A stretch of 37,330 nucleotides of DNA, from the IMG/VR virus record IMGVR_UViG_3300045988_164629, positions 1 through 37,330 of that record, one strand, 5' to 3'. Position 1 is the first letter of the stretch. Every line of letters starts with the position of its first letter. The stretch is from a virus. Under the pieces are notes generated by a model. The model saw nothing but the letters and a program-made list of their open reading frames with translations. It was not told the DNA's origin and did no database searches. Positions 4,078 through 36,239 of this stretch are shown piece after piece. Made by a program: the position numbers and the translations under genes.

Positions 4078-5526
4078 ATGATAGGGTTATTAACTAAGAA
4101 ATTGATTGATTTTTTCAGGCAAACGGATATTGTCACTGAAAATCATATACCCGTTTTAACCTCTAATGTCTCTGACGGAAGGACGGTTGTAAATACCACA
4201 TTGCCGGCTATTGTCATAACCGTAGATTCCGCTCCAAACAATATGGTATATATTGGAGGATTGATAAGAGACAACATAAATATTGACGTGGTTGTAATGG
4301 ACAGGCTTGTAAATTACACTCTTTCAGGAGAGACAGATATTTATGAATGGAGGCGTAATCTTGCCTATAAGCTAAGGACTGAACTTTTCACGGAGCGGGC
4401 ATCCCAATTTTTCAAGGATATACTTCAAGGGAACAATTTCCTGCCTATGTATAGGGGAATGAATAACTTTATCAAGCAGGGATACAAGGAAGACACGGAA
4501 GAAGATATCGAATGCTGGCGGATGAAATTCGAGTGTGTCATGGTGGACAATTCTACCATAGACATAACATATATAAAAGCCAAATCAGGCTCTGTGCAGC
4601 TTATAGACAAGCAGATAAATCCCGTCACCCCTATACATCCCCATTATGGGATAGAAGAGATGATGTGGAAGTATGGCTATGGGCAGTATATACCTGATTT
4701 GTTAGATATGATTGTCACGAGCGGACAGATAACAGACCAGTATAAGGAGGAAGGGAATGTTCAAATACCTAACACCTTATCAGACAAAGTATTATTTTTG
4801 CCAGAGAATTTCCCTGAAAAGACAACTTATTACTACTTATATGGGTTATTAAGTATGAAATACGTCCCGTATAATGAGCGTATGAGAAATTTTAATAATA
4901 ATGTATGTATAAGGGAGATAAATGTAAATACATCCTCATGGATGAGCTTTAATCAAGGCTTTAGGAATTGTTATTTTCTGACTAAAATAAATGAAGGGAA
5001 TATAGTAGATTGTTCAAGTATAAGTAAGGCTGGGAATATTTCAAATACTTTTTATGGATGTTCATCTTTAGAAGAAGTAAGCCTTATAAACATTCCTGAA
5101 AGGGCTATAGATTGTAGTAGTTTATTTTCTTTAGCTCCTAATATTATTCCTGATAAAATGAAGAAAATTACATTTTCCCCTAAAATAAAGGTTACTCGGA
5201 TAACATTAGGATTTAGTGGGAGATATTCATTGCAAACAATTGTCGGGGAATTAGATTTTTCAGAATGTGAACCAACCCAACAACAGAATCCATTTAATGG
5301 ATGTACTTCTCTTATAGAAGTCCGATTTACACCTGAAAGCATAAAACAAAATTTGTCTTTTACACAATCATCTCAATTAAGTGATGAATCCATACAAAGC
5401 ATACTTGACGGATTGGCTAATATTTCGGAAACACATGTATTATACCTAAATTCAGAAGTATATGCAAAATTGACGGAAGAGCAAAAACAGTCGGTAACAG
5501 ATAAAGGTTGGACAATAATTAGTTAA
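4078..5526 (+). CDS. BspA-type leucine-rich repeat (LRR_5-like) domain protein in the head module
   Basis: C-terminal half has repeated motifs FYGCSSLEEVSL and FNGCTSLIEVRF and ends in KGWTI, as in BspA-like LRR proteins. The C-terminal half is AT-rich with A/T-ending codons, unlike its neighbours. Confidence 0.55.
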   Translation: MIGLLTKKLIDFFRQTDIVTENHIPVLTSNVSDGRTVVNTTLPAIVITVDSAPNNMVYIGGLIRDNINIDVVVMDRLVNYTLSGETDIYEWRRNLAYKLRTELFTERASQFFKDILQGNNFLPMYRGMNNFIKQGYKEDTEEDIECWRMKFECVMVDNSTIDITYIKAKSGSVQLIDKQINPVTPIHPHYGIEEMMWKYGYGQYIPDLLDMIVTSGQITDQYKEEGNVQIPNTLSDKVLFLPENFPEKTTYYYLYGLLSMKYVPYNERMRNFNNNVCIREINVNTSSWMSFNQGFRNCYFLTKINEGNIVDCSSISKAGNISNTFYGCSSLEEVSLINIPERAIDCSSLFSLAPNIIPDKMKKITFSPKIKVTRITLGFSGRYSLQTIVGELDFSECEPTQQQNPFNGCTSLIEVRFTPESIKQNLSFTQSSQLSDESIQSILDGLANISETHVLYLNSEVYAKLTEEQKQSVTDKGWTIIS

Positions 5527-5528
5527 TT

Positions 5529-5708
5529 ATGTTAGAGTTAAAAGCAAGAAAAGGTTATGTATATACCGACAAAAACAAAACATTTTTTGCCGATACAATT
5601 GTATTGGGGAAATATGACAAGAAAGAGAATTATCGGCAAATGAAGATAGAAGGGAATGAAGAACTAATAGAAAATTATAAAAATGGTAAGGCAAGTATTA
5701 TCGGATGA
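5529..5708 (+). CDS. Small hypothetical ORF (59 aa) not in the supplied track
   Basis: ATG at 5529 to TGA at 5706-5708; fills the gap before the capsid gene. Confidence 0.2.
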   Translation: MLELKARKGYVYTDKNKTFFADTIVLGKYDKKENYRQMKIEGNEELIENYKNGKASIIG

Positions 5709-7794
5709 ATCCCTAAACGATAGAGGATTTAGGGTAATGAACAAGTCTATAAAATGGGACAGATATTTGAAAAATCCCGTTCTTGTAGAACAGCATATGT
5801 CATGGGAGCCTCCTATCGGCAGGATAGATGATATAAAACTCGAAAATGACGCATGGACAGGAGTATTAGTATTTGCATCTACTGAAAAAGGGAAGATGTA
5901 TGAGAAATTATACAATGAAGGTTGTATAAGAGCCGTATCTATTGGCGGGAATGCAGTAATAGTAGAGAATGAGAGGGGAGAGAAAAAAACAAAGTCTTTT
6001 GATATTTTTGAAGTCTCCTTAGTTACTATTCCTTCAAATGCCAATGCGGTAAAACATGAATTGGGGCATATTCCGGTAGAATATAAATTATATTGTGATA
6101 AAAAGGAATTTATTACTTTAAGTTCTAATTTTGAAGAATTAAATAATATGGAAGAAGAAAAAGAAAAAAAGGAAGAATTGGAGGCTAAGCCCGAAGTTCA
6201 AGAAGTCCAAGAGCCAGAAGCTCCAAAAGAAGAGTTTAAGGCAGAGGAAACAAAAAACACAGTCCTTTCGGCTTTGAAAGATTTGTTAGGTCTGAATTCA
6301 AAGAAGAAATTAGAAGATGATGATGAAGACAAAGACATTAAAGAAGACGAAGAAGAGGACAAGGAGGAAGTAGAGGACACCAAAGCTAAAGACGAAAAGG
6401 AAAAATTGGAGTCTGAGGATTTGAAAAAGAAATTGCCTGAAAAAGTAGCGGAAAGATTGCAGGCAAACCCTGAAGCAAGAATTTTTACAGAAAATACACA
6501 ACAACCTAAAATTATGACAGAATACAAGACTTTACATTCTTATTTATCTTCGGAAGAAGGTAAAAATAAGATGGGTATGATGGCATTAGGCTCTGACCTT
6601 AAGTATGCTCATGAGCACAAGCCTATTCCCGTGCATGATTTGCTGGATTCTTACAAAGAACTGGCATCAGTGTTAAAAAATGACCGTGACTTTATGGCTT
6701 CATTCGGTCAGTTCAATTTATGTTTTGAGGGCAAAGCTCCTATGTCTACCGGTCAATTGCTCGATACTGTTCTTGCAGCAGGAGATAATACCTATGATTT
6801 CCTAAGTACTCCTGATTTGGTGGCTGTACAATGGTTGGCAATGTATTATAGAATGCTTTTCCCTATTAATACATTTGCAGACAGAATCCCGCGTATCAGT
6901 TCGGATTCGGCAGGTACTATTCATCCTGAAATAAACATGAAGCCTAACGTTTATTTTGATACACTTGTTCCGAAAAACAAAGCAGAAGAATATTTGTATG
7001 ATGATAACGCAATTGCTATTCCTACTTACGCATTCTCTCTAAATGCTATTGCTTGGCAGCCAGGCGATGACAACTTATTGAGATACGATAAGAGAGGCAT
7101 AGGTATGTCTGAAGCCTTAAGAGTAGTAGCGAATGCTCAACACAATTATATTATTCAGGTTCTGGCGAATTCAGTAAAAGAGGGTACATTTGTTCCAATG
7201 ACAGGTGCAAATTCTTTTGCATCAGCCGGAATGTTCCCAGCAAATGCTGCAGCTGCAGGAAATTTGAAAGAATTCACAGTAGCTGACTTATTAAGCCTTC
7301 GTATGAAGTTTATTCAGGCTAATTTCAATCTCGATATTGAACGTCCGGAGATAGTAATGGATGCTATTTATGCAAACCAGCTACAATCTAATGATACTTT
7401 TGTAAACGCCCTTAACTTGCCTACTGAAAAAATCGGGCCAATGCAGATGATGGCATACGGTATGAACATTACACAACGTTCTATATGTGGAGTATATGAT
7501 ACAGCTACAAATAAAGTAGTAGACCCGAAATTATATGGTATACCTTTGACTGCCCATAAAATACCAAGTTCTTATACTCCTCCGACATTAGCAGCTACTG
7601 CATATGGATGTATTATAGGTTTCTTGCCTTCTCAATTCCTTATTGGCGTAGGTCGTACAAATGTATTCGTAAAACAAGAACCTACCCTTTGGGCATGGGA
7701 AATGTCTATGGATACTCGTATGGGAGCCGGTGCAGCTCGTAAAGACGGAGTAGGAATCTATGGCGTAGCTCCAGCGGTAGCAGCAGGTGCTTAA
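5683..7794 (+). CDS. Prohead protease - acidic scaffold (delta-like) - major capsid protein fusion
   Basis: N-terminus carries HK97-family prohead protease (S78) motifs EQHMSWEPPIGRI, AVSIGGNA and FEVSLVTIPSNANAV. Residues about 150-290 are an E/K-rich coiled-coil scaffold-like region. The C-terminal ~420 aa sits in the major capsid position. All of it is one uninterrupted 703-aa ORF. The true start may be M at 5737. Confidence 0.55.
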   Translation: MVRQVLSDESLNDRGFRVMNKSIKWDRYLKNPVLVEQHMSWEPPIGRIDDIKLENDAWTGVLVFASTEKGKMYEKLYNEGCIRAVSIGGNAVIVENERGEKKTKSFDIFEVSLVTIPSNANAVKHELGHIPVEYKLYCDKKEFITLSSNFEELNNMEEEKEKKEELEAKPEVQEVQEPEAPKEEFKAEETKNTVLSALKDLLGLNSKKKLEDDDEDKDIKEDEEEDKEEVEDTKAKDEKEKLESEDLKKKLPEKVAERLQANPEARIFTENTQQPKIMTEYKTLHSYLSSEEGKNKMGMMALGSDLKYAHEHKPIPVHDLLDSYKELASVLKNDRDFMASFGQFNLCFEGKAPMSTGQLLDTVLAAGDNTYDFLSTPDLVAVQWLAMYYRMLFPINTFADRIPRISSDSAGTIHPEINMKPNVYFDTLVPKNKAEEYLYDDNAIAIPTYAFSLNAIAWQPGDDNLLRYDKRGIGMSEALRVVANAQHNYIIQVLANSVKEGTFVPMTGANSFASAGMFPANAAAAGNLKEFTVADLLSLRMKFIQANFNLDIERPEIVMDAIYANQLQSNDTFVNALNLPTEKIGPMQMMAYGMNITQRSICGVYDTATNKVVDPKLYGIPLTAHKIPSSYTPPTLAATAYGCIIGFLPSQFLIGVGRTNVFVKQEPTLWAWEMSMDTRMGAGAARKDGVGIYGVAPAVAAGA

Positions 7795-15148: not shown

Positions 15149-15490
15149 ATGCAAGATTTTAAGTTTGACATAGAGAATAATGACATTGTATTTGGTTCAG
15201 ATATGGTTATTATAGACTCATGTAGCGTACAAAACGGTACATTGATATTTATGAAAAGCGTAGCCAGCATAGATAATCCAAGTATCGGGGTAGGTTTCCA
15301 AGAAGTAGCCATAAATGTAAATCAAAATGAAGCGAATGAATTAGCCACAAGAGCGGAGAATCAAATCCTTAACGATGGGGGGCGTATAGCAGAAATTTCA
15401 GTGCAAGAGACAGAGGAATCTGGAGTATATGAGTATGAGTTGCAAGTAGTATATAATTCAGAATACAAGCAATATGGCATACAAAGTTAA
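15149..15490 (+). CDS. Putative small baseplate protein
   Basis: 113 aa; positional call. Confidence 0.3.
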   Translation: MQDFKFDIENNDIVFGSDMVIIDSCSVQNGTLIFMKSVASIDNPSIGVGFQEVAINVNQNEANELATRAENQILNDGGRIAEISVQETEESGVYEYELQVVYNSEYKQYGIQS

Positions 15491-15848
15491 ATATGGAGAT
15501 ACTATTTTTGATGTTTTGTTGAACGTTTGCGGAGATTATTCGCAGATAAACGAAATATTATCCTTAAACGGGCTATTGTCTTATACTCCACAACTGACAG
15601 TAGGACAAGAGTTGGAAGTAGAAGGATTGCAAACTTCAAATAATGCTACTCTGATAAGAGCCTCTGAATTCCCATATAATTCCAATTTATTATCGGAAGA
15701 GGAATTAGATAAACAGATTGAACAAATAATAGATTCTATCGAGGGAGGATATTTCATGGAAGTACAACCGAACTATACTAATGTTCCACAAAACGGAGAT
15801 TCTCAATATATAAATATATATACTAACTCAACTTTTAATGTTTTATAA
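15474..15848 (+). CDS. LysM-like domain tail protein (P2 gpX-like)
   Basis: N-terminal YKVKYGDTIFDVL...INEILSLNGL...LTVGQELEV resembles the LysM consensus. Confidence 0.4.
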   Translation: MAYKVKYGDTIFDVLLNVCGDYSQINEILSLNGLLSYTPQLTVGQELEVEGLQTSNNATLIRASEFPYNSNLLSEEELDKQIEQIIDSIEGGYFMEVQPNYTNVPQNGDSQYINIYTNSTFNVL

Positions 15849-20162: not shown

Positions 20163-20642
20163 ATGGAGAATCAGGCGGGGGGATTTCAAGGTTTTTTAGG
20201 AAGTTTATTTGCAGTAGTAATAAGCTATATAGCACCTATATATGATTATGTTATAATTATCGCTTATATATTCTTGATAAACTTTATAATAGGATTGATA
20301 GAAGATATCATTGTAAAACATAAAACGTTTAAATGCAAAAAGTTTTATTTCTGCTTATGTGAGATGTTAGTGTTTTATCTCTTAGTAGGGAGCGTTTATT
20401 TTATAGGTAATAAATTCCATAACAAAGCTATGGCATTACAATGTATCTCGGCTATTGTATCCATAGTTACCTATTTTTATTCATTAAACATATTGACAAA
20501 CATAAAATCATTGTTACCGAACAACAGGGCAATATCTTTTATTCATTATATAGTAAGTTTTGAGATAGTAAAGAAAATACCGTATTTTAAAGAGTTTGAA
20601 AGCCATGAAGCATCTGAATCAAATAGGGGAAAAGGGGCTTAA
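20163..20642 (+). CDS. Holin-like membrane protein
   Basis: 3-4 hydrophobic helices; immediately upstream of and overlapping the lysozyme gene. Confidence 0.4.
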   Translation: MENQAGGFQGFLGSLFAVVISYIAPIYDYVIIIAYIFLINFIIGLIEDIIVKHKTFKCKKFYFCLCEMLVFYLLVGSVYFIGNKFHNKAMALQCISAIVSIVTYFYSLNILTNIKSLLPNNRAISFIHYIVSFEIVKKIPYFKEFESHEASESNRGKGA

Positions 20643-21051
20643 CCTTATAAAGGAATTTGAGGGGTTAAGATTAGTTGCTTATAAGTGTCCTGCGGGAGTG
20701 TGGACAATAGGATATGGGCACACTTATAATGTCAAAGAAGGAGACATCATAACCGAGGCACAAGCAACTGAATTTCTAATGGAAGATATTTCTAATGCTG
20801 TTGATATAGTAGCAGGCTCTACTATGGACGTGGAATTAACTCAAAATCAATTTGACGCATTAATTTCTTTTACTTATAACGTTGGCGTAAAGAACTTTTC
20901 TGATTCTACTCTTTTACGTAAAGTGAAATTGAATCCGAATGACCCTACTATCGCTAATGAGTTTAAAAAATGGATACATGCGGGGAAAGAGGTTCTTTCA
21001 GGGCTTGTAAGGAGAAGGAAGGCAGAATCTGAATTATATTTTAGAAAATGA
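20596..21051 (+). CDS. Endolysin, GH24 phage lysozyme family
   Basis: Motif LIKEFEGLRLVAYKCPAGVWTIGYGHT, typical of T4/lambda-type lysozymes, including the catalytic Glu. Confidence 0.8.
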   Translation: MKAMKHLNQIGEKGLNLIKEFEGLRLVAYKCPAGVWTIGYGHTYNVKEGDIITEAQATEFLMEDISNAVDIVAGSTMDVELTQNQFDALISFTYNVGVKNFSDSTLLRKVKLNPNDPTIANEFKKWIHAGKEVLSGLVRRRKAESELYFRK

Positions 21052-21536
21052 AAAAATTTGGGGTGTTATTGGTTATTTCGCTCTTTCTGTCCTTTGCTTG
21101 TGGCTATGTCATAGGCAAACATGCCAATACACCCCAAATAGAGGCTCATACAGACACTTTCGTGATAACGAGGGTAGATACTATCATTGACACGCTTTTG
21201 ATTCCAAAATACATCAAAATAAAGGAGACTATCAGAGACACGTTGTATGTTCCTGAACTTTCTAAGCCGGCAGAAGTAGAAATACCGATATCAGAGTACT
21301 GTTTTAAAGATTCTACATATTCGATATGTATGTCAGGGTATCGTGTAGAGGCTAAAAAGATAGAAGTTTATTCACCGGTGAAGTATTTAACTGTAACGAA
21401 AACAGAGACGCATGTCAAAAAAGAAAAAAGCCACTTCAGCTTAGGATTGCAAGCAGGATTTGGCTATGCTATAGCCTGCAACAAGTTTTCTCCGTATTTT
21501 GGATTTGGGGCGCAATGGAATTTCTTAACATTTTAG
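21048..21536 (+). CDS. Lysis accessory protein, spanin-like (N-terminal signal/anchor, C-terminal FGFGAQWNFLTF)
   Basis: N-terminus MKKFGVLLVISLFLSFACG; last gene of the lysis cassette; C-terminus ends in an aromatic residue as in outer-membrane beta-signals. Confidence 0.3.
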   Translation: MKKFGVLLVISLFLSFACGYVIGKHANTPQIEAHTDTFVITRVDTIIDTLLIPKYIKIKETIRDTLYVPELSKPAEVEIPISEYCFKDSTYSICMSGYRVEAKKIEVYSPVKYLTVTKTETHVKKEKSHFSLGLQAGFGYAIACNKFSPYFGFGAQWNFLTF

Positions 21537-21639: not shown

Positions 21640-21845
21640 AGTACCTATTTTCACAAACGAGTACGGGCTACATATGAATAATAATAACACTATGCAAATA
21701 TATAAAATATCCCCAAATTTCACAACTTGGGGATATAGATTGCCATTTTACTTTTCCAAAATGCTGTACTTTGTTGATATGTACAAATATAAAAAATCCC
21801 GTCTATTTTCACAAACAAACGGGGTAAAAATATGAATAATAATGT
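21640..21845. repeat. Non-coding repeat region: two ~45-bp imperfect direct repeats, three TTTCACAAC motifs and an 8-bp-stem hairpin (21709-21735)
   Basis: ctattttcacaaac...atatgaataataat occurs at 21645-21687 and 21803-21843; atccccaa/ttggggat is an inverted repeat with tttcacaac in its loop. Confidence 0.6.
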
Positions 21846-22280
21846 TTAACTAAAACTAAGTTTGTCGGACTGTATTAAAAAGAATAAGTATTTATCTCTT
21901 ATTTTCCTTGTTATTTTAACCATTAAATCTGCCGTGGTATCGTCAAATTGGGCGAAGTTATCATTTATATAATCATATATCTTTTGCAATTCCGATATAG
22001 TATCCTTTATCATCATATCCAAAGAAGGGATAAATTTAATAGGCTCTATAAATGAAAATTTTAAATATTGCTCAAAATTATAAGGCGGTATACCTCCGGT
22101 TACCACAGTACTCTCTGCAATTTCGTCTACAAAATCAATTAGTTTTTCGTTTATTTCGTCAAAATACGGATGATAAGTCATAAAGTCGTGCCCTACCATA
22201 GTCCAGTGACGGGCTTTAATATTCTCAGCGCATATTTTTAATGACGCTTGTATAATATTTAAAATTTCCTCTGTTTCCAT
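21846..22280 (-). CDS. Dps/ferritin-like protein
   Basis: HWTMVGHDFMTYHPYFDEINEKLIDFVDEIAESTVVTGG and FDDTTADLM line up with Dps HWNV.G..F...H......LID..D..AER....GG and DDDTADIL. Confidence 0.6.
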   Translation of the reverse strand: METEEILNIIQASLKICAENIKARHWTMVGHDFMTYHPYFDEINEKLIDFVDEIAESTVVTGGIPPYNFEQYLKFSFIEPIKFIPSLDMMIKDTISELQKIYDYINDNFAQFDDTTADLMVKITRKIRDKYLFFLIQSDKLSFS

Positions 22281-22290
22281 GATTTATATT

Positions 22291-22593
22291 TTAAAAAGGA
22301 CAATCATCATTATTATTATTTCGACTATTATTGTTTTGTTGTGTCTCTGTTTTATTTGTTTTTATCTCAACTCCTTTACCGCAGAATATTTTAGGTTGAT
22401 TTGACAATCTTTCTTCTGCATTTTGATTTATGTAAACTGTAATGTCACTTCCGTAAGGGTCAGGCTGTTTACGTTTACATGCACATAGCTTAACAACATT
22501 GGCTTCATTCCCATTTTTCCGCAGGAAATTTTTTATTTTATCCGAGGGGATTTGGCTCAAATCTATTTCAATAACAATCATTTCCATACACAA
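22291..22593 (-). CDS. Hypothetical protein
   Basis: 100-aa ORF with an Asn-rich C-terminus. Confidence 0.35.
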   Translation of the reverse strand: MCMEMIVIEIDLSQIPSDKIKNFLRKNGNEANVVKLCACKRKQPDPYGSDITVYINQNAEERLSNQPKIFCGKGVEIKTNKTETQQNNNSRNNNNDDCPF

Positions 22594-22605
22594 ATATATT
22601 AAATT

Positions 22606-22959
22606 TTATAATTCAACGTATATTTCTCGTTCATTTTCTTGTTTATCAGAGTTGTATAAATCCGCTAACTCTTTTAAGTTATCAGGACTTATAATAAATA
22701 GACACCCCTTTTTGTTTTTTTCCTTTATAGCTACAAGAGGTATTTTCCCCTCTTTCTTGGCTTTTTTAGAAGTATCATCGAATAATCTCCATATTGAAAA
22801 TGATTCCCTTAGTTTACATTCTATATAAATATCAGGGTGCATAGAGTCAGAGTGTGTATTATGTCCTGAATTGCTACCGGAAAGTGGAACTCTTTTAGTC
22901 CCAAAAAGGGCTGCTACTGCCGCCTCAAATCTTTGCCATGTTCTTTTGCTTGTTGCCAT
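22606..22959 (-). CDS. Putative Holliday junction resolvase, Hjc-like PD-(D/E)xK nuclease
   Basis: Pattern E..VA.L.G.KRVPLSGS.......D.YIECK resembles archaeal Hjc/Hje. Confidence 0.35.
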   Translation of the reverse strand: MATSKRTWQRFEAAVAALFGTKRVPLSGSNSGHNTHSDSMHPDIYIECKLRESFSIWRLFDDTSKKAKKEGKIPLVAIKEKNKKGCLFIISPDNLKELADLYNSDKQENEREIYVEL

Positions 22960-22960
22960 G

Positions 22961-23575
22961 TTATTTTATTTTGAATAAATCTACTCTGTCACATAGAAAT
23001 ACAGTATCATTTCCAATATTTGTATTATCTATGATTTTTTGATAATGTTCTTTATGTTTAGATATATATCTTTGTGGACAAGGAATCCATTTATAGCCTC
23101 TGTAGTTTTTGAAACAGTCCACTATTGCAGGTTGAGGTCTATTGTTGGAATATATATGTTCCCATGAAGATTTTTTTATAAGTTGCCAAATAACATTTTC
23201 GTCATGACGGAAAATAGGTAATATATGTTTTATAAATAAATCGGTAAAATTGTAATCATTTATATGATTATTAAATGTATCATCATACACAAACCTAATA
23301 TAAATTGGTTCTGGTGCTATTTTTGCTGCAAGATAAGTTAAATTATAAACAGTAATCCTTAGCGATTCATAATATTCTACCAATCCATGACAATTTATAA
23401 ACATACCTAATTTTTTATCATATCTTATTCTGAAGTCAAAGTATCTTACTCCATGCTTGAACTGTTCATATATTGTCAACTTCTGGCATTTTGACGTAAA
23501 GTTAATCAGCTTCATCCACCATTTGCGTGGTTCCAGACATGTGTTTGCGTTGTGCGCTCCGAGTATCTTTTTCAT
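22961..23575 (-). CDS. PLC-like phosphodiesterase (PI-PLC X-domain-like) protein
   Basis: ILGAHNA and GVRYFDFRIRYDKKLGMFINCHG resemble the PI-PLC motifs IPGTHDS and ARIFDIRGR....VLHHG. Confidence 0.35.
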   Translation of the reverse strand: MKKILGAHNANTCLEPRKWWMKLINFTSKCQKLTIYEQFKHGVRYFDFRIRYDKKLGMFINCHGLVEYYESLRITVYNLTYLAAKIAPEPIYIRFVYDDTFNNHINDYNFTDLFIKHILPIFRHDENVIWQLIKKSSWEHIYSNNRPQPAIVDCFKNYRGYKWIPCPQRYISKHKEHYQKIIDNTNIGNDTVFLCDRVDLFKIK

Positions 23576-23808
23576 TTGCTTTTGTTTTTTAATATTAGTT
23601 CTTCTTCAAAAGGACAAAATTGGGATTTTTCCCAATATTCGTAGTATTTCCCAATTGGATGTTCTGGTTTATCAGAATTGACTACAGTTCCCTTTAAATA
23701 ATCACCATTTTCTAAGGCTATAATAATAATATTTAAATATGGATTAAACGCTAAAATAGGGAATTCTTCCCAAGAAATATCAGCTCGATTTACTCTTGTC
23801 TGTATCAT
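23572..23808 (-). CDS. Hypothetical protein
   Basis: 78-aa ORF in the early operon. Confidence 0.35.
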   Translation of the reverse strand: MIQTRVNRADISWEEFPILAFNPYLNIIIIALENGDYLKGTVVNSDKPEHPIGKYYEYWEKSQFCPFEEELILKNKSK

Positions 23809-27180: not shown

Positions 27181-27837
27181 CTATTTAGGTTTGCTTTTTG
27201 ACATACTATACATCCGACTCTTTTTTTTCATCTTGTACTCTGGATTTATTGGAAGATTATATTTATGTATGTAATCCCAAATATCAGAGTCCGTCCAATC
27301 GATTATCGGTTTTAGTTGTATAATACTTGCAGTTCCTACGGATTGACAATATTCCTCAAAATAATCATCTATAAGGTTCTTATTCTTTTTTAGTAGTGTT
27401 TTGTTCTTTATTTCAAATGCAGTTCGTTCTCTCCTTTTTAAACTTTCATATTTTCTAACTCCGACGATTGAACATTCATCTACATATTTTCTGTTGTGTT
27501 TGTAATCAGTACAACAATACGCTGTTTGAACATCCGGTAATAGTCCCCCATGATTCCGCCAAATATTTTCAATAAATCCGTATTTATAGTCTCTACGCCT
27601 TATCACATCTGGATAATTTTCTTTGATAAACTTTAAAGTGATATTGCTTTCAAAAGAGTGGTTGAAGTAAGATTTGAATTCAATCCCGCTTCGTTTGCAG
27701 AGGTCATAGCATACCTGACTGTCTTTCCCTCCTGAGAATCCTAATCTTACTTCAAATTCCATGGCCTTTGCAATTTTTGAGAACTTCTGTATTCTCTCTA
27801 TTGCCGTTTGCTCTATTTCTTCTGCAAATAAGTTCAT
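27181..27837 (-). CDS. PAPS reductase-like PP-loop ATPase family protein (DndC-like), N-terminal part
   Basis: PP-loop motif GFSGGKDSQV and a CC pair in YCCTDYK. The ORF ends 14 codons after the A8 run. Confidence 0.6.
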   Translation of the reverse strand: MNLFAEEIEQTAIERIQKFSKIAKAMEFEVRLGFSGGKDSQVCYDLCKRSGIEFKSYFNHSFESNITLKFIKENYPDVIRRRDYKYGFIENIWRNHGGLLPDVQTAYCCTDYKHNRKYVDECSIVGVRKYESLKRRERTAFEIKNKTLLKKNKNLIDDYFEEYCQSVGTASIIQLKPIIDWTDSDIWDYIHKYNLPINPEYKMKKKSRMYSMSKSKPK

Positions 27838-35702: not shown

Positions 35703-36239
35703 TTATTGTTTAAATATATGTCCGCCTATTTCCCAAAAATCATACATTAGGTTTCTTTCGTATAAAGAGTAGTCTATATAATACTTAATGTCGGGCGGGC
35801 AATCAGGGTATTGTGCATCAAACATCTCCTCTACAAAATCATCTATATTTTCATAATACCCCATATATGCATCTTTAGCCCTATTTATTAAGTCTAATAT
35901 GTCAGACCCTAATAATTTGTAGTGATAATTATCCAGCCAGTAGAAAAAGGCTTCTTTGAAATCTTCGTCGTATTCTTTTGTACAAAAGTAGTTACACAAA
36001 TCTATGAGTTCATTTGGCAATTTGTCTGTTAATTGTAGTTCCTCCGGAATGTCTTCAAATTCTACTATCTCGTAATAATCCGCTCCGGTTGCCTTTAATA
36101 ATTCAACCATTTCTTTCTCGAATTCGTTAGGGTGGAAGTATGATAGTACTTCAACCCACTCGCTTTTTATTACTTCGTTCGTCTCGTTTTTGCGGAATTC
36201 TACGCGGATTCTCGCGTCTTCTATGTTTATTCTTTCCAT
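35703..36239 (-). CDS. ardA: ArdA-like antirestriction protein
   Basis: Highly acidic 178-aa protein. The C-terminal YYIDYSLYERNLMYDFWEIGGHIFKQ resembles the ArdA YIDYQAYGRDL...HGIFE motif, and IPEELQL resembles LPEELQ. Confidence 0.55.
   Translation of the reverse strand: MERINIEDARIRVEFRKNETNEVIKSEWVEVLSYFHPNEFEKEMVELLKATGADYYEIVEFEDIPEELQLTDKLPNELIDLCNYFCTKEYDEDFKEAFFYWLDNYHYKLLGSDILDLINRAKDAYMGYYENIDDFVEEMFDAQYPDCPPDIKYYIDYSLYERNLMYDFWEIGGHIFKQ

Follow-up and report, generated by a model that had tools for sequence, protein, structure and literature searches.

A divergent Dps-family mini-ferritin gene at the end of a recombination gene array in a tailed-phage genome

Introduction

What could a tailed phage gain from encoding a Dps protein? 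The question is raised by a minus-strand open reading frame (ORF) that runs from ATG to stop at positions 21846..22280 of IMG/VR virus record IMGVR_UViG_3300045988_164629, a stretch of 37,330 nucleotides that was analysed as a whole and is referred to here as the window. An initial annotation, made by eye and giving no strand, had read the 144-aa product of this ORF as a Dps/ferritin-like protein, an unusual cargo for a phage, that could protect replicating DNA from oxidative damage or manipulate host iron. E. coli-type Dps binds DNA through a flexible, Lys-rich N-terminal tail, and the tail-less Dps proteins of Listeria and Agrobacterium tumefaciens protect DNA without binding it. For the A. 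tumefaciens protein, protection of DNA without binding is stated in the title of PDB entry 1o9r. The identity of the phage product, its likely chemistry, its genomic setting and its relatives are discussed in turn here.

Results and discussion

Assignment to the Dps family

The product of 21846..22280 (-; 144 aa plus stop) is a Dps-family mini-ferritin, belonging to the Dps branch of the ferritin-like superfamily, as profile and PDB matches, structure prediction with AF2 and Foldseek, and the dN/dS analysis given below all indicate. As the initial annotation had anticipated, residues 6-126 matched the Pfam Ferritin family PF00210 above its gathering score (30.1 against 24.5 bits, E 5.3e-7). 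A full-length match was obtained to PHROG 3636, a Dps-like family labelled 'DNA binding protein' (E 1.2e-21, 78.4 bits), with residues 2-137 aligned to positions 7-145 of the 149-position profile. When all PDB chains were searched with phmmer, 73 matches were returned at E<=10 and, among those listed, all were Dps-family proteins or Dps-based fusion constructs. The top match was Listeria innocua Dps (6sev, 1qgh; E 2e-12), which aligned over residues 2-133. Likeness to Dps along the length of the product was thus borne out, and both motifs from which it had been noticed, RHWTMVGHDFMTYHPYFDEINEKLIDFVDEIAESTVVTGG (residues 24-63) and DDTTADLM (residues 113-120), are present in the ORF translation. 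Against NF006975, the NCBI equivalog for E. coli-type Dps, the protein scored 48.9 bits, below the cut-off of 114, and it must therefore be regarded as a divergent member of the family. A chance ORF was considered and rejected, given a similarity to Dps far beyond chance and the purifying selection acting on the gene.

The fold was predicted with AF2 from an alignment of 50 sequences, taken as the best homologues from an exhaustive phmmer search (monomer; pLDDT 95.1, pTM 0.90). A single-sequence prediction was unusable (pLDDT 46), and the alignment-based model was the one used. Its helices span residues 3-27, 33-60, 69-75 (BC), 87-107 and 114-142; the short BC helix sits in a long loop, and a fifth, C-terminal helix is absent. 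Such a short BC helix sets Dps apart from classical ferritins, and the phage protein has it in the predicted model. Foldseek comparison with the PDB gave Dps proteins for all of the top 50 matches (TM 0.76-0.91, rmsd down to 1.0 Å), including those of Listeria, P. aeruginosa (PA0962), Nostoc (Dps4), E. coli and S. aureus as well as HP-NAP, and superposition of the model on Dps crystal structures gave TM values of 0.87-0.91. The ferritin-fold match on which the initial annotation had staked its reading was therefore found. A classical ferritin or bacterioferritin, which would form a 24-mer from subunits of about 160-180 aa, each with its di-iron centre mid-bundle, was rejected: no E helix is present in the model, the ligands are of the inter-subunit Dps type, and no such protein occurred among the top 50 structural matches. 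Because the model is a monomer, we infer dodecamer assembly and the geometry of the inter-subunit sites only by analogy with Dps proteins of solved structure.

Ferroxidase centre, pore residues and surface charge

HMMER alignment to Listeria Dps (1qgh) placed H25, H37, D41, D52 and E56 of the phage protein on Listeria H31, H43, D47, D58 and E62, which make up the canonical inter-subunit ferroxidase centre as defined previously (PMC6675082). W26, the Trp beside the first ferroxidase His, fell on Listeria W32. The corresponding codons lie at 22113..22208 on the minus strand, from H25 (22206-22208) to E56 (22113-22115). All five canonical residues are hence present, and their 12-4-11-4 spacing is exactly that of E. 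coli H51/H63/D67/D78/E82; the ferroxidase-site His, Asp and Glu picked out by eye survive proper alignment. Within the 50-sequence alignment H25, G30, H37 and D52 were invariant, and W26, F33, A55, E56 and D113 were conserved in at least 90% of sequences. The least constrained ligand was D41, with G or N in its place in several phage-context relatives, and the second iron site may for this reason be dispensable or altered in the phage-side clade. Two of the Listeria pore aspartates, D126 and D130, align with phage D114 and D118, and the third, D121, falls in a 4-residue deletion of the phage protein.

Listeria innocua Dps (Flp; 1qgh, 6sev, 6hui) offers the closest comparison among solved structures (about 25% identity, TM 0.87-0.89, rmsd 1.2-1.6 Å), sharing the five ligands, the Trp and the two pore aspartates, and both proteins are compact, tail-less and acidic. 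The phage protein differs in being 12 residues shorter, in the deletion, which precedes helix D, and in being encoded by a phage rather than a cell. E. coli Dps (1dps, 1f30) has the same fold (TM 0.87, rmsd 1.6 Å) and identical ligand spacing, whereas the phage protein, acidic overall and below the equivalog cut-off, is devoid of the ~20-residue Lys-rich N-terminal tail with which the E. coli protein binds DNA.

A basic N- or C-terminal tail was sought in the phage sequence and in the AF2 model, and none was seen: helix A begins at residue 3, residues 1-12 contain no K/R and three D/E, the pI is 4.63 and the net charge is about -10. Nucleoid protection by DNA binding, which had been brought up as the role of Dps in the host, finds for these reasons no support in the phage protein. 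A DNA-binding or condensing protein that shields phage DNA (for instance from host nucleases) or compacts the host nucleoid, with ferroxidase activity secondary, is nevertheless a reading with some arguments in its favour. The family takes its name from DNA binding, homologues are labelled 'DNA binding protein' in PHROG 3636 and in phage records, the gene lies among DNA-metabolism genes, and helix D carries five K/R within residues 125-144. Moreover, some Dps proteins bind DNA in the absence of a tail, through a positive surface (HP-NAP) or through cation bridges. Against this stand the acidic character and missing tail of the phage protein, its closest solved relative being Listeria Dps, which is not known to bind DNA, and the conservation of a full ferroxidase set, which would be needless for a purely architectural role. 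On balance we regard DNA condensation as an unlikely primary function.

Position in the phage genome

The window is a ~37-kb tailed-phage genome of myovirus-like type. Its plus strand carries the large terminase (466-1860), portal, tail sheath, baseplate hub, tail fibre and endolysin (20596-21051) genes. A minus-strand array running from 36239 to 21846 encodes ArdA-like, RecT, YqaJ exonuclease, DUF6291, N6/N4 DNA methylase, PAPS-reductase-family and resolvase-like proteins, and then Dps. With such genes on both strands, the description of the Dps as phage-encoded is upheld. PHROGs of both the head-maturation protease and the major head protein, among them phrog_4523 'major head and protease protein', were matched by the 703-aa product of 5683-7794 (+), apparently encoded by a fusion of protease and capsid genes. 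Within the array, the first gene of any size, at 35703-36239 (-), is the ArdA-like (antirestriction) one, which scored 25.6 bits, just below the gathering score of 27.

Dps is the 3'-most gene of the array. Immediately upstream lies a 100-aa ORF (22291..22593, -), which ends 10 nt before the Dps start codon and is presumed to be co-transcribed with it. This ORF had no family match in profile scans, and its C-terminus is Asn-rich (QQNNNSRNNNNDD). Two genes upstream of Dps is a 117-aa Holliday-junction resolvase-like gene (22606..22959, -; phrog_2002, E 4.1e-11). Ahead of it comes a gene for a 204-aa protein (22961-23575, -) that matched no PHROG and scored 16 bits for PI-PLC-X (E 0.009), a weak result below the gathering score of 23.1. 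In the homologous loci L001 and L002 a 101-aa gene is called at the position of the 100-aa ORF, a match by position only, and a 201-aa gene is called where the window has the 204-aa gene.

Downstream of Dps, the 310-nt convergent intergenic region holds two terminator-like hairpins on the minus strand, both found by a terminator scan. The first (21798..21823) begins 23 nt after the Dps stop codon and is followed by AUUUUUUAUA (RNA fold -14.7 kcal/mol, z -3.4); the second (21707..21736) has a 13 bp stem and is followed by UUUUAUAUAUUU (-19.5 kcal/mol, z -3.5). Of the two-part claim that Dps is the last gene of an early operon, the position is well founded, Dps being 3'-most, 10 nt from the upstream ORF and followed by two terminators; that the operon is early was read from gene content alone. 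A further terminator-like element at 23636..23619, which as an operon boundary would split off a four-gene unit, was rejected because it lies inside a 78-aa ORF (23572..23808) with a counterpart in L001. The tandem hairpins (21690-21830, -) have a GUGAAA loop motif in common, and each is followed by UAUAUUUG, which fits the Bacteroidota -7 promoter motif TAnnTTTG. This motif was not enriched in the window (59 occurrences, 49.7 expected), and a sigma-70 promoter scan did no better than on shuffled sequences (22 found, 17.3 expected), so that we propose no promoter here. A 53-aa plus-strand ORF at 21674-21835 overlaps both hairpins and is probably spurious.

The array also bears on the suggestion that the phage manipulates host iron. 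It includes a PAPS-reductase-family gene at 27181-27837 (-; PF01507, E 9.5e-13; phrog_424), as does the Dps array of L001. A Dps cage might starve host functions or defences of iron, or might buffer or supply iron enzymes such as this PAPS-reductase-family protein, and the intact ferroxidase centre and acidic pore residues would suit either task. Yet Dps and PAPS reductase do not co-vary: loci L003, L032, L033, L039 and L121 carry Dps with no PAPS_reduct gene called nearby. Storage and detoxification are, in addition, the same chemistry, so that this reading is hard to separate from an antioxidant one. Iron manipulation as the main role seems to us improbable.

Probable host

The host of the phage is probably a member of the gut Bacteroidota. 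Few SD-like motifs upstream of genes are typical of Bacteroidota, and in the window such a motif (GGAG, GAGG or AGGA within 22 nt upstream) precedes 4 of the 45 predicted genes, as would suit a Bacteroidota-type host relying on few Shine-Dalgarno sites. The A+T content of upstream regions is 79%, and the GC content of the window is 34.9%. Further host clues are the DUF6808 and DUF6291 genes of the window and its relatives. The nearest deposited relative, the unannotated record MT835567, comes from human faeces (TerL 51% and Dps 31% identical). A profile scan of genome contigs from 185,579 species-representative genomes revealed no prophage copy of the Dps gene, the only hit being a 28%-identical Dps from a Flavobacterium MAG.

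Selection on the gene

The Dps gene was present in 26 IMG/VR contigs at 96-100% protein identity and, at 79%, in two ENA contigs of ~38.4 kb. Differences from the window allele, counted over 23 distinct nucleotide alleles, were mostly synonymous, and five allele pairs showed 7-18 synonymous and no nonsynonymous differences. Comparison of the window allele with 21 allele groups by the Nei-Gojobori method gave dN/dS values of 0-0.08 in all pairs; for the window and L001, dS was saturated and this pair has no dN/dS value. The gene is under strong purifying selection; it is real and probably functional.

These data bear directly on whether the gene could be a neutral or decaying passenger, recently captured from a host and without a phage role. 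Dps is overwhelmingly a cellular protein, and the GC content of the gene differs slightly from that of the window (30.8% against 34.9%), as might be expected of a recent capture. On the other side are the strong purifying selection, the retention of Dps across phages with TerL identity as low as 51%, the phage-borne nature of the nearest homologues and the lack of any close copy in the 185,579 species genomes. The selection data, together with the neighbour-joining (NJ) tree described below, already largely refute this explanation, which we find barely credible.

Homologues and their genomic contexts

Megablast of 25 kb of the window against a phage collection gave no match, and a word-indexed protein search found three close relatives of the Dps protein; the distant ones were reached by exhaustive phmmer against 1.84 billion representative proteins, which yielded 427 homologues, 14 of them matching below 1e-10. 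Outside its own cluster of at least 79% identity, the next-best homologues are 30-37% identical to the window protein, and the best cellular matches about 28-31%.

In most phage-context homologues Dps stands at the end of a RecT/YqaJ or replication module. In P0006 (L003/L004), RecT, YqaJ and DnaB genes are followed by Dps and then by convergent late genes; in P0016 (L033/L034), methylase genes precede a Dps that is convergent with DUF6808; and in P0025 (L039), YqaJ, RecT and RtcB genes lead to a Dps overlapping DUF6808. Dps likewise follows DNA polymerase A, VapE and ssDNA-binding protein genes in P0044 (L121), and HP1-like and YopX genes in P0021 (L122). A mid-module position was seen in P0020 (L032), whose 39-kb contig also bears genes for terminase, a Mu-like portal, YqaJ, RecT and RusA. 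Cellular contexts were found for P0014, where an AhpC peroxiredoxin gene adjoins Dps among housekeeping genes, and for L037, on a 1.5-Mb Flavobacterium contig. For P0018, on a 2.5-kb contig, an adjoining response regulator gene is merely suggestive of a cellular context.

An NJ tree, which is rough, lacks support values and is only indicative, separated every sequence of phage context from the three cellular ones. On its phage side, 10 of 10 contexts were phage-like, and two of the three on the cellular side were clearly cellular, P0018 being the third. Taken together, these observations raise the possibility, which we put forward tentatively, of a distinct and anciently phage-resident lineage of tail-less Dps proteins (134-154 aa). 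Inheritance would be largely vertical, with the gene kept at the 3' end of the replication/recombination module and often beside a DUF6808 lysis gene, in several groups of gut Bacteroidota phages, and the role would be specific to phage replication and recombination in anaerobes rather than that of a generic borrowed stress gene. Such a role might be the shielding of single-stranded RecT/exonuclease intermediates from Fenton chemistry, or the countering of a host response based on reactive oxygen species (ROS) or iron.

In an endolysin-anchored survey, Dps was found in 18 of 19 loci with a 92-98% identical endolysin, the nineteenth (L043) ending about 300 nt past the endolysin, and in none of 61 loci with 45-59% identical endolysins; as endolysins move between phages, these counts say little about the distribution of Dps across the lineage.

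A gene matching phrog_26448 adjoins Dps in the window (21048-21536, +), and its counterpart in L001/L002 is called as DUF6808. Adjacency of Dps to a DUF6808 (PF20647) or phrog_26448 lysis-region gene recurs in L001 (10761-11246), L033 (5420-5893) and L039 (8459-9016). The two genes are convergent in the window, in L001/L002 and in L033/L034, where a 121-aa gene lies between them; they are co-directional in L039, with a 4-nt overlap. This recurrent adjacency may reflect shared genome architecture only.

Proposed function

The explanation that we favour, and hold to be reasonably probable, is that the window encodes a selectively maintained phage Dps, a predicted ferroxidase cage that detoxifies Fe2+ and H2O2 without condensing DNA and in this way protects replicating phage DNA. 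By analogy with its solved relatives, the protein would form a hollow dodecamer of 23 symmetry, in which the two-fold interfaces house the ferroxidase sites, each site being shared between H25, H37 and D41 of one subunit and D52 and E56 of its partner. Fe2+ would enter through acidic three-fold pores, for which D114 and D118 are conserved, would undergo oxidation with H2O2 as the preferred oxidant, and would be kept inside as a ferric core, with both Fenton reagents being removed. A preference of Dps for H2O2 has been described (PMC10536872). The acidic nature of the phage protein (pI 4.6) and the absence of a Lys-rich tail lead us to expect a chemical role rather than DNA condensation, as for the Dps proteins of Listeria and Agrobacterium. 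Presumably transcribed together with the RecT, YqaJ exonuclease, resolvase and methylase genes, Dps would shield the replicating and recombining phage DNA, and the machinery of the infected cell, from hydroxyl radicals in an oxygen-sensitive host. Infection could then stay productive under exposure to oxygen or peroxide.

If the protein is active, its gene would be an auxiliary one that lets a gut phage adjust how far its anaerobic host tolerates oxygen, peroxide and iron during infection. Phage fitness would be tied to gradients of oxygen and iron in the gut, an idea already published for other gut phages. General knowledge of Dps and of phages is left unchanged by the finding. A small, strongly conserved, tail-less phage Dps with many natural alleles is nonetheless a convenient candidate for a first experimental test, and it could serve as a compact cage scaffold.

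Dps in other phages

Dps-like genes have been reported in phages before. Benler et al. 2021 (PMC8008677) described DPS-like enzymes of 'Gratiaviridae', together with others from seven Lactobacillus phages and 36 further gut phage genomes, and proposed that those of 'Gratiaviridae' help infection to tolerate oxidative damage. In L. plantarum phages, Kyrkou et al. 2019 (PMC6669764) noted Dps beside DNA-metabolism genes and proposed a role close to the antioxidant one considered here. No experimental study of a phage Dps was found in the literature searched. By tblastn (E<=0.05) we detected Dps in 94 of 50,697 phage records, 59 of them from Streptomyces phages and 18 from Lactobacillus phages; most of the others were from phages of Clostridium, Enterococcus, Synechococcus, Staphylococcus, Listeria and Salmonella, with one from Bacteroides. 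The epithet 'unusual cargo' is hence apt as regards frequency and not as regards novelty, given both earlier reports and the existence of PHROG 3636 for the protein's own family. Dps genes turn up in phages seldom yet repeatedly and have been described before; the window protein is a divergent further case. What is added here is an intact canonical centre, a tail-less acidic character, strong purifying selection and a recurrent position in a probable phage-specific clade.

With the DPS-like enzymes of the gut 'Gratiaviridae' and 'Flandersviridae', the window protein has in common its family, the type of carrier (human-gut phages of anaerobic Bacteroidota) and the proposed role in oxidative tolerance. 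The window phage is a different one, its ~37-kb genome being myovirus-like and equipped with a RecT/YqaJ module. Of the window proteins that were scanned, none was recognised as a manganese catalase. The protein termed 'DNA-binding ferritin-like' in the L. plantarum myophages Semele, Bacchae, Iacchus, Dionysus, Bromius and LpeD, which corresponds to PHROG 3636, is 26-31% identical to the window protein over about 90% of its length. In those phages too Dps lies beside DNA metabolism, replication and recombination genes (PMC6669764), but their genomes are ~140 kb, their hosts are Gram-positive and aerotolerant, and the sequence relationship is distant.

Foldseek against BFVD returned many phage Dps-like models, including those of Bacillus phage G gp346 and E. 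coli phage SU10. Dps-like domains (TM 0.71-0.88) also occur inside the longer BFVD proteins A0A6J7XDU5 (333 aa), A0A6J7WIS1 (432 aa), A0A6J7WPK9 (763 aa) and A0A6J5N5R9 (679 aa), several of which are named 'Prohead protease'. By analogy with encapsulins, which load ferritin-like cargo, this suggests that some phages may target a Dps-like domain into the capsid. Fusions of this kind, found in uncultured phages, raise the question of whether the window Dps is itself virion cargo, its cage or subunits being packaged in the capsid and either delivered with the DNA or protecting it inside the particle. The window gene is, however, a stand-alone 144-aa ORF in a replication and recombination array; the head genes lie on the opposite strand, the protease-capsid gene is about 14 kb away, and the Dps product has no extension able to act as a targeting peptide. 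Packaging of the window protein is accordingly very improbable in our estimation.

In the 59 Streptomyces phages, whose genomes measure about 130 kb, the Dps-like ORF is a distant one of 24-28% identity, found for example at 4779-5153 in NC_048728 and at 15374-15754 in MH576964. For most of these ORFs the GenBank label is 'hypothetical protein' and the RefSeq label 'DNA binding protein'.
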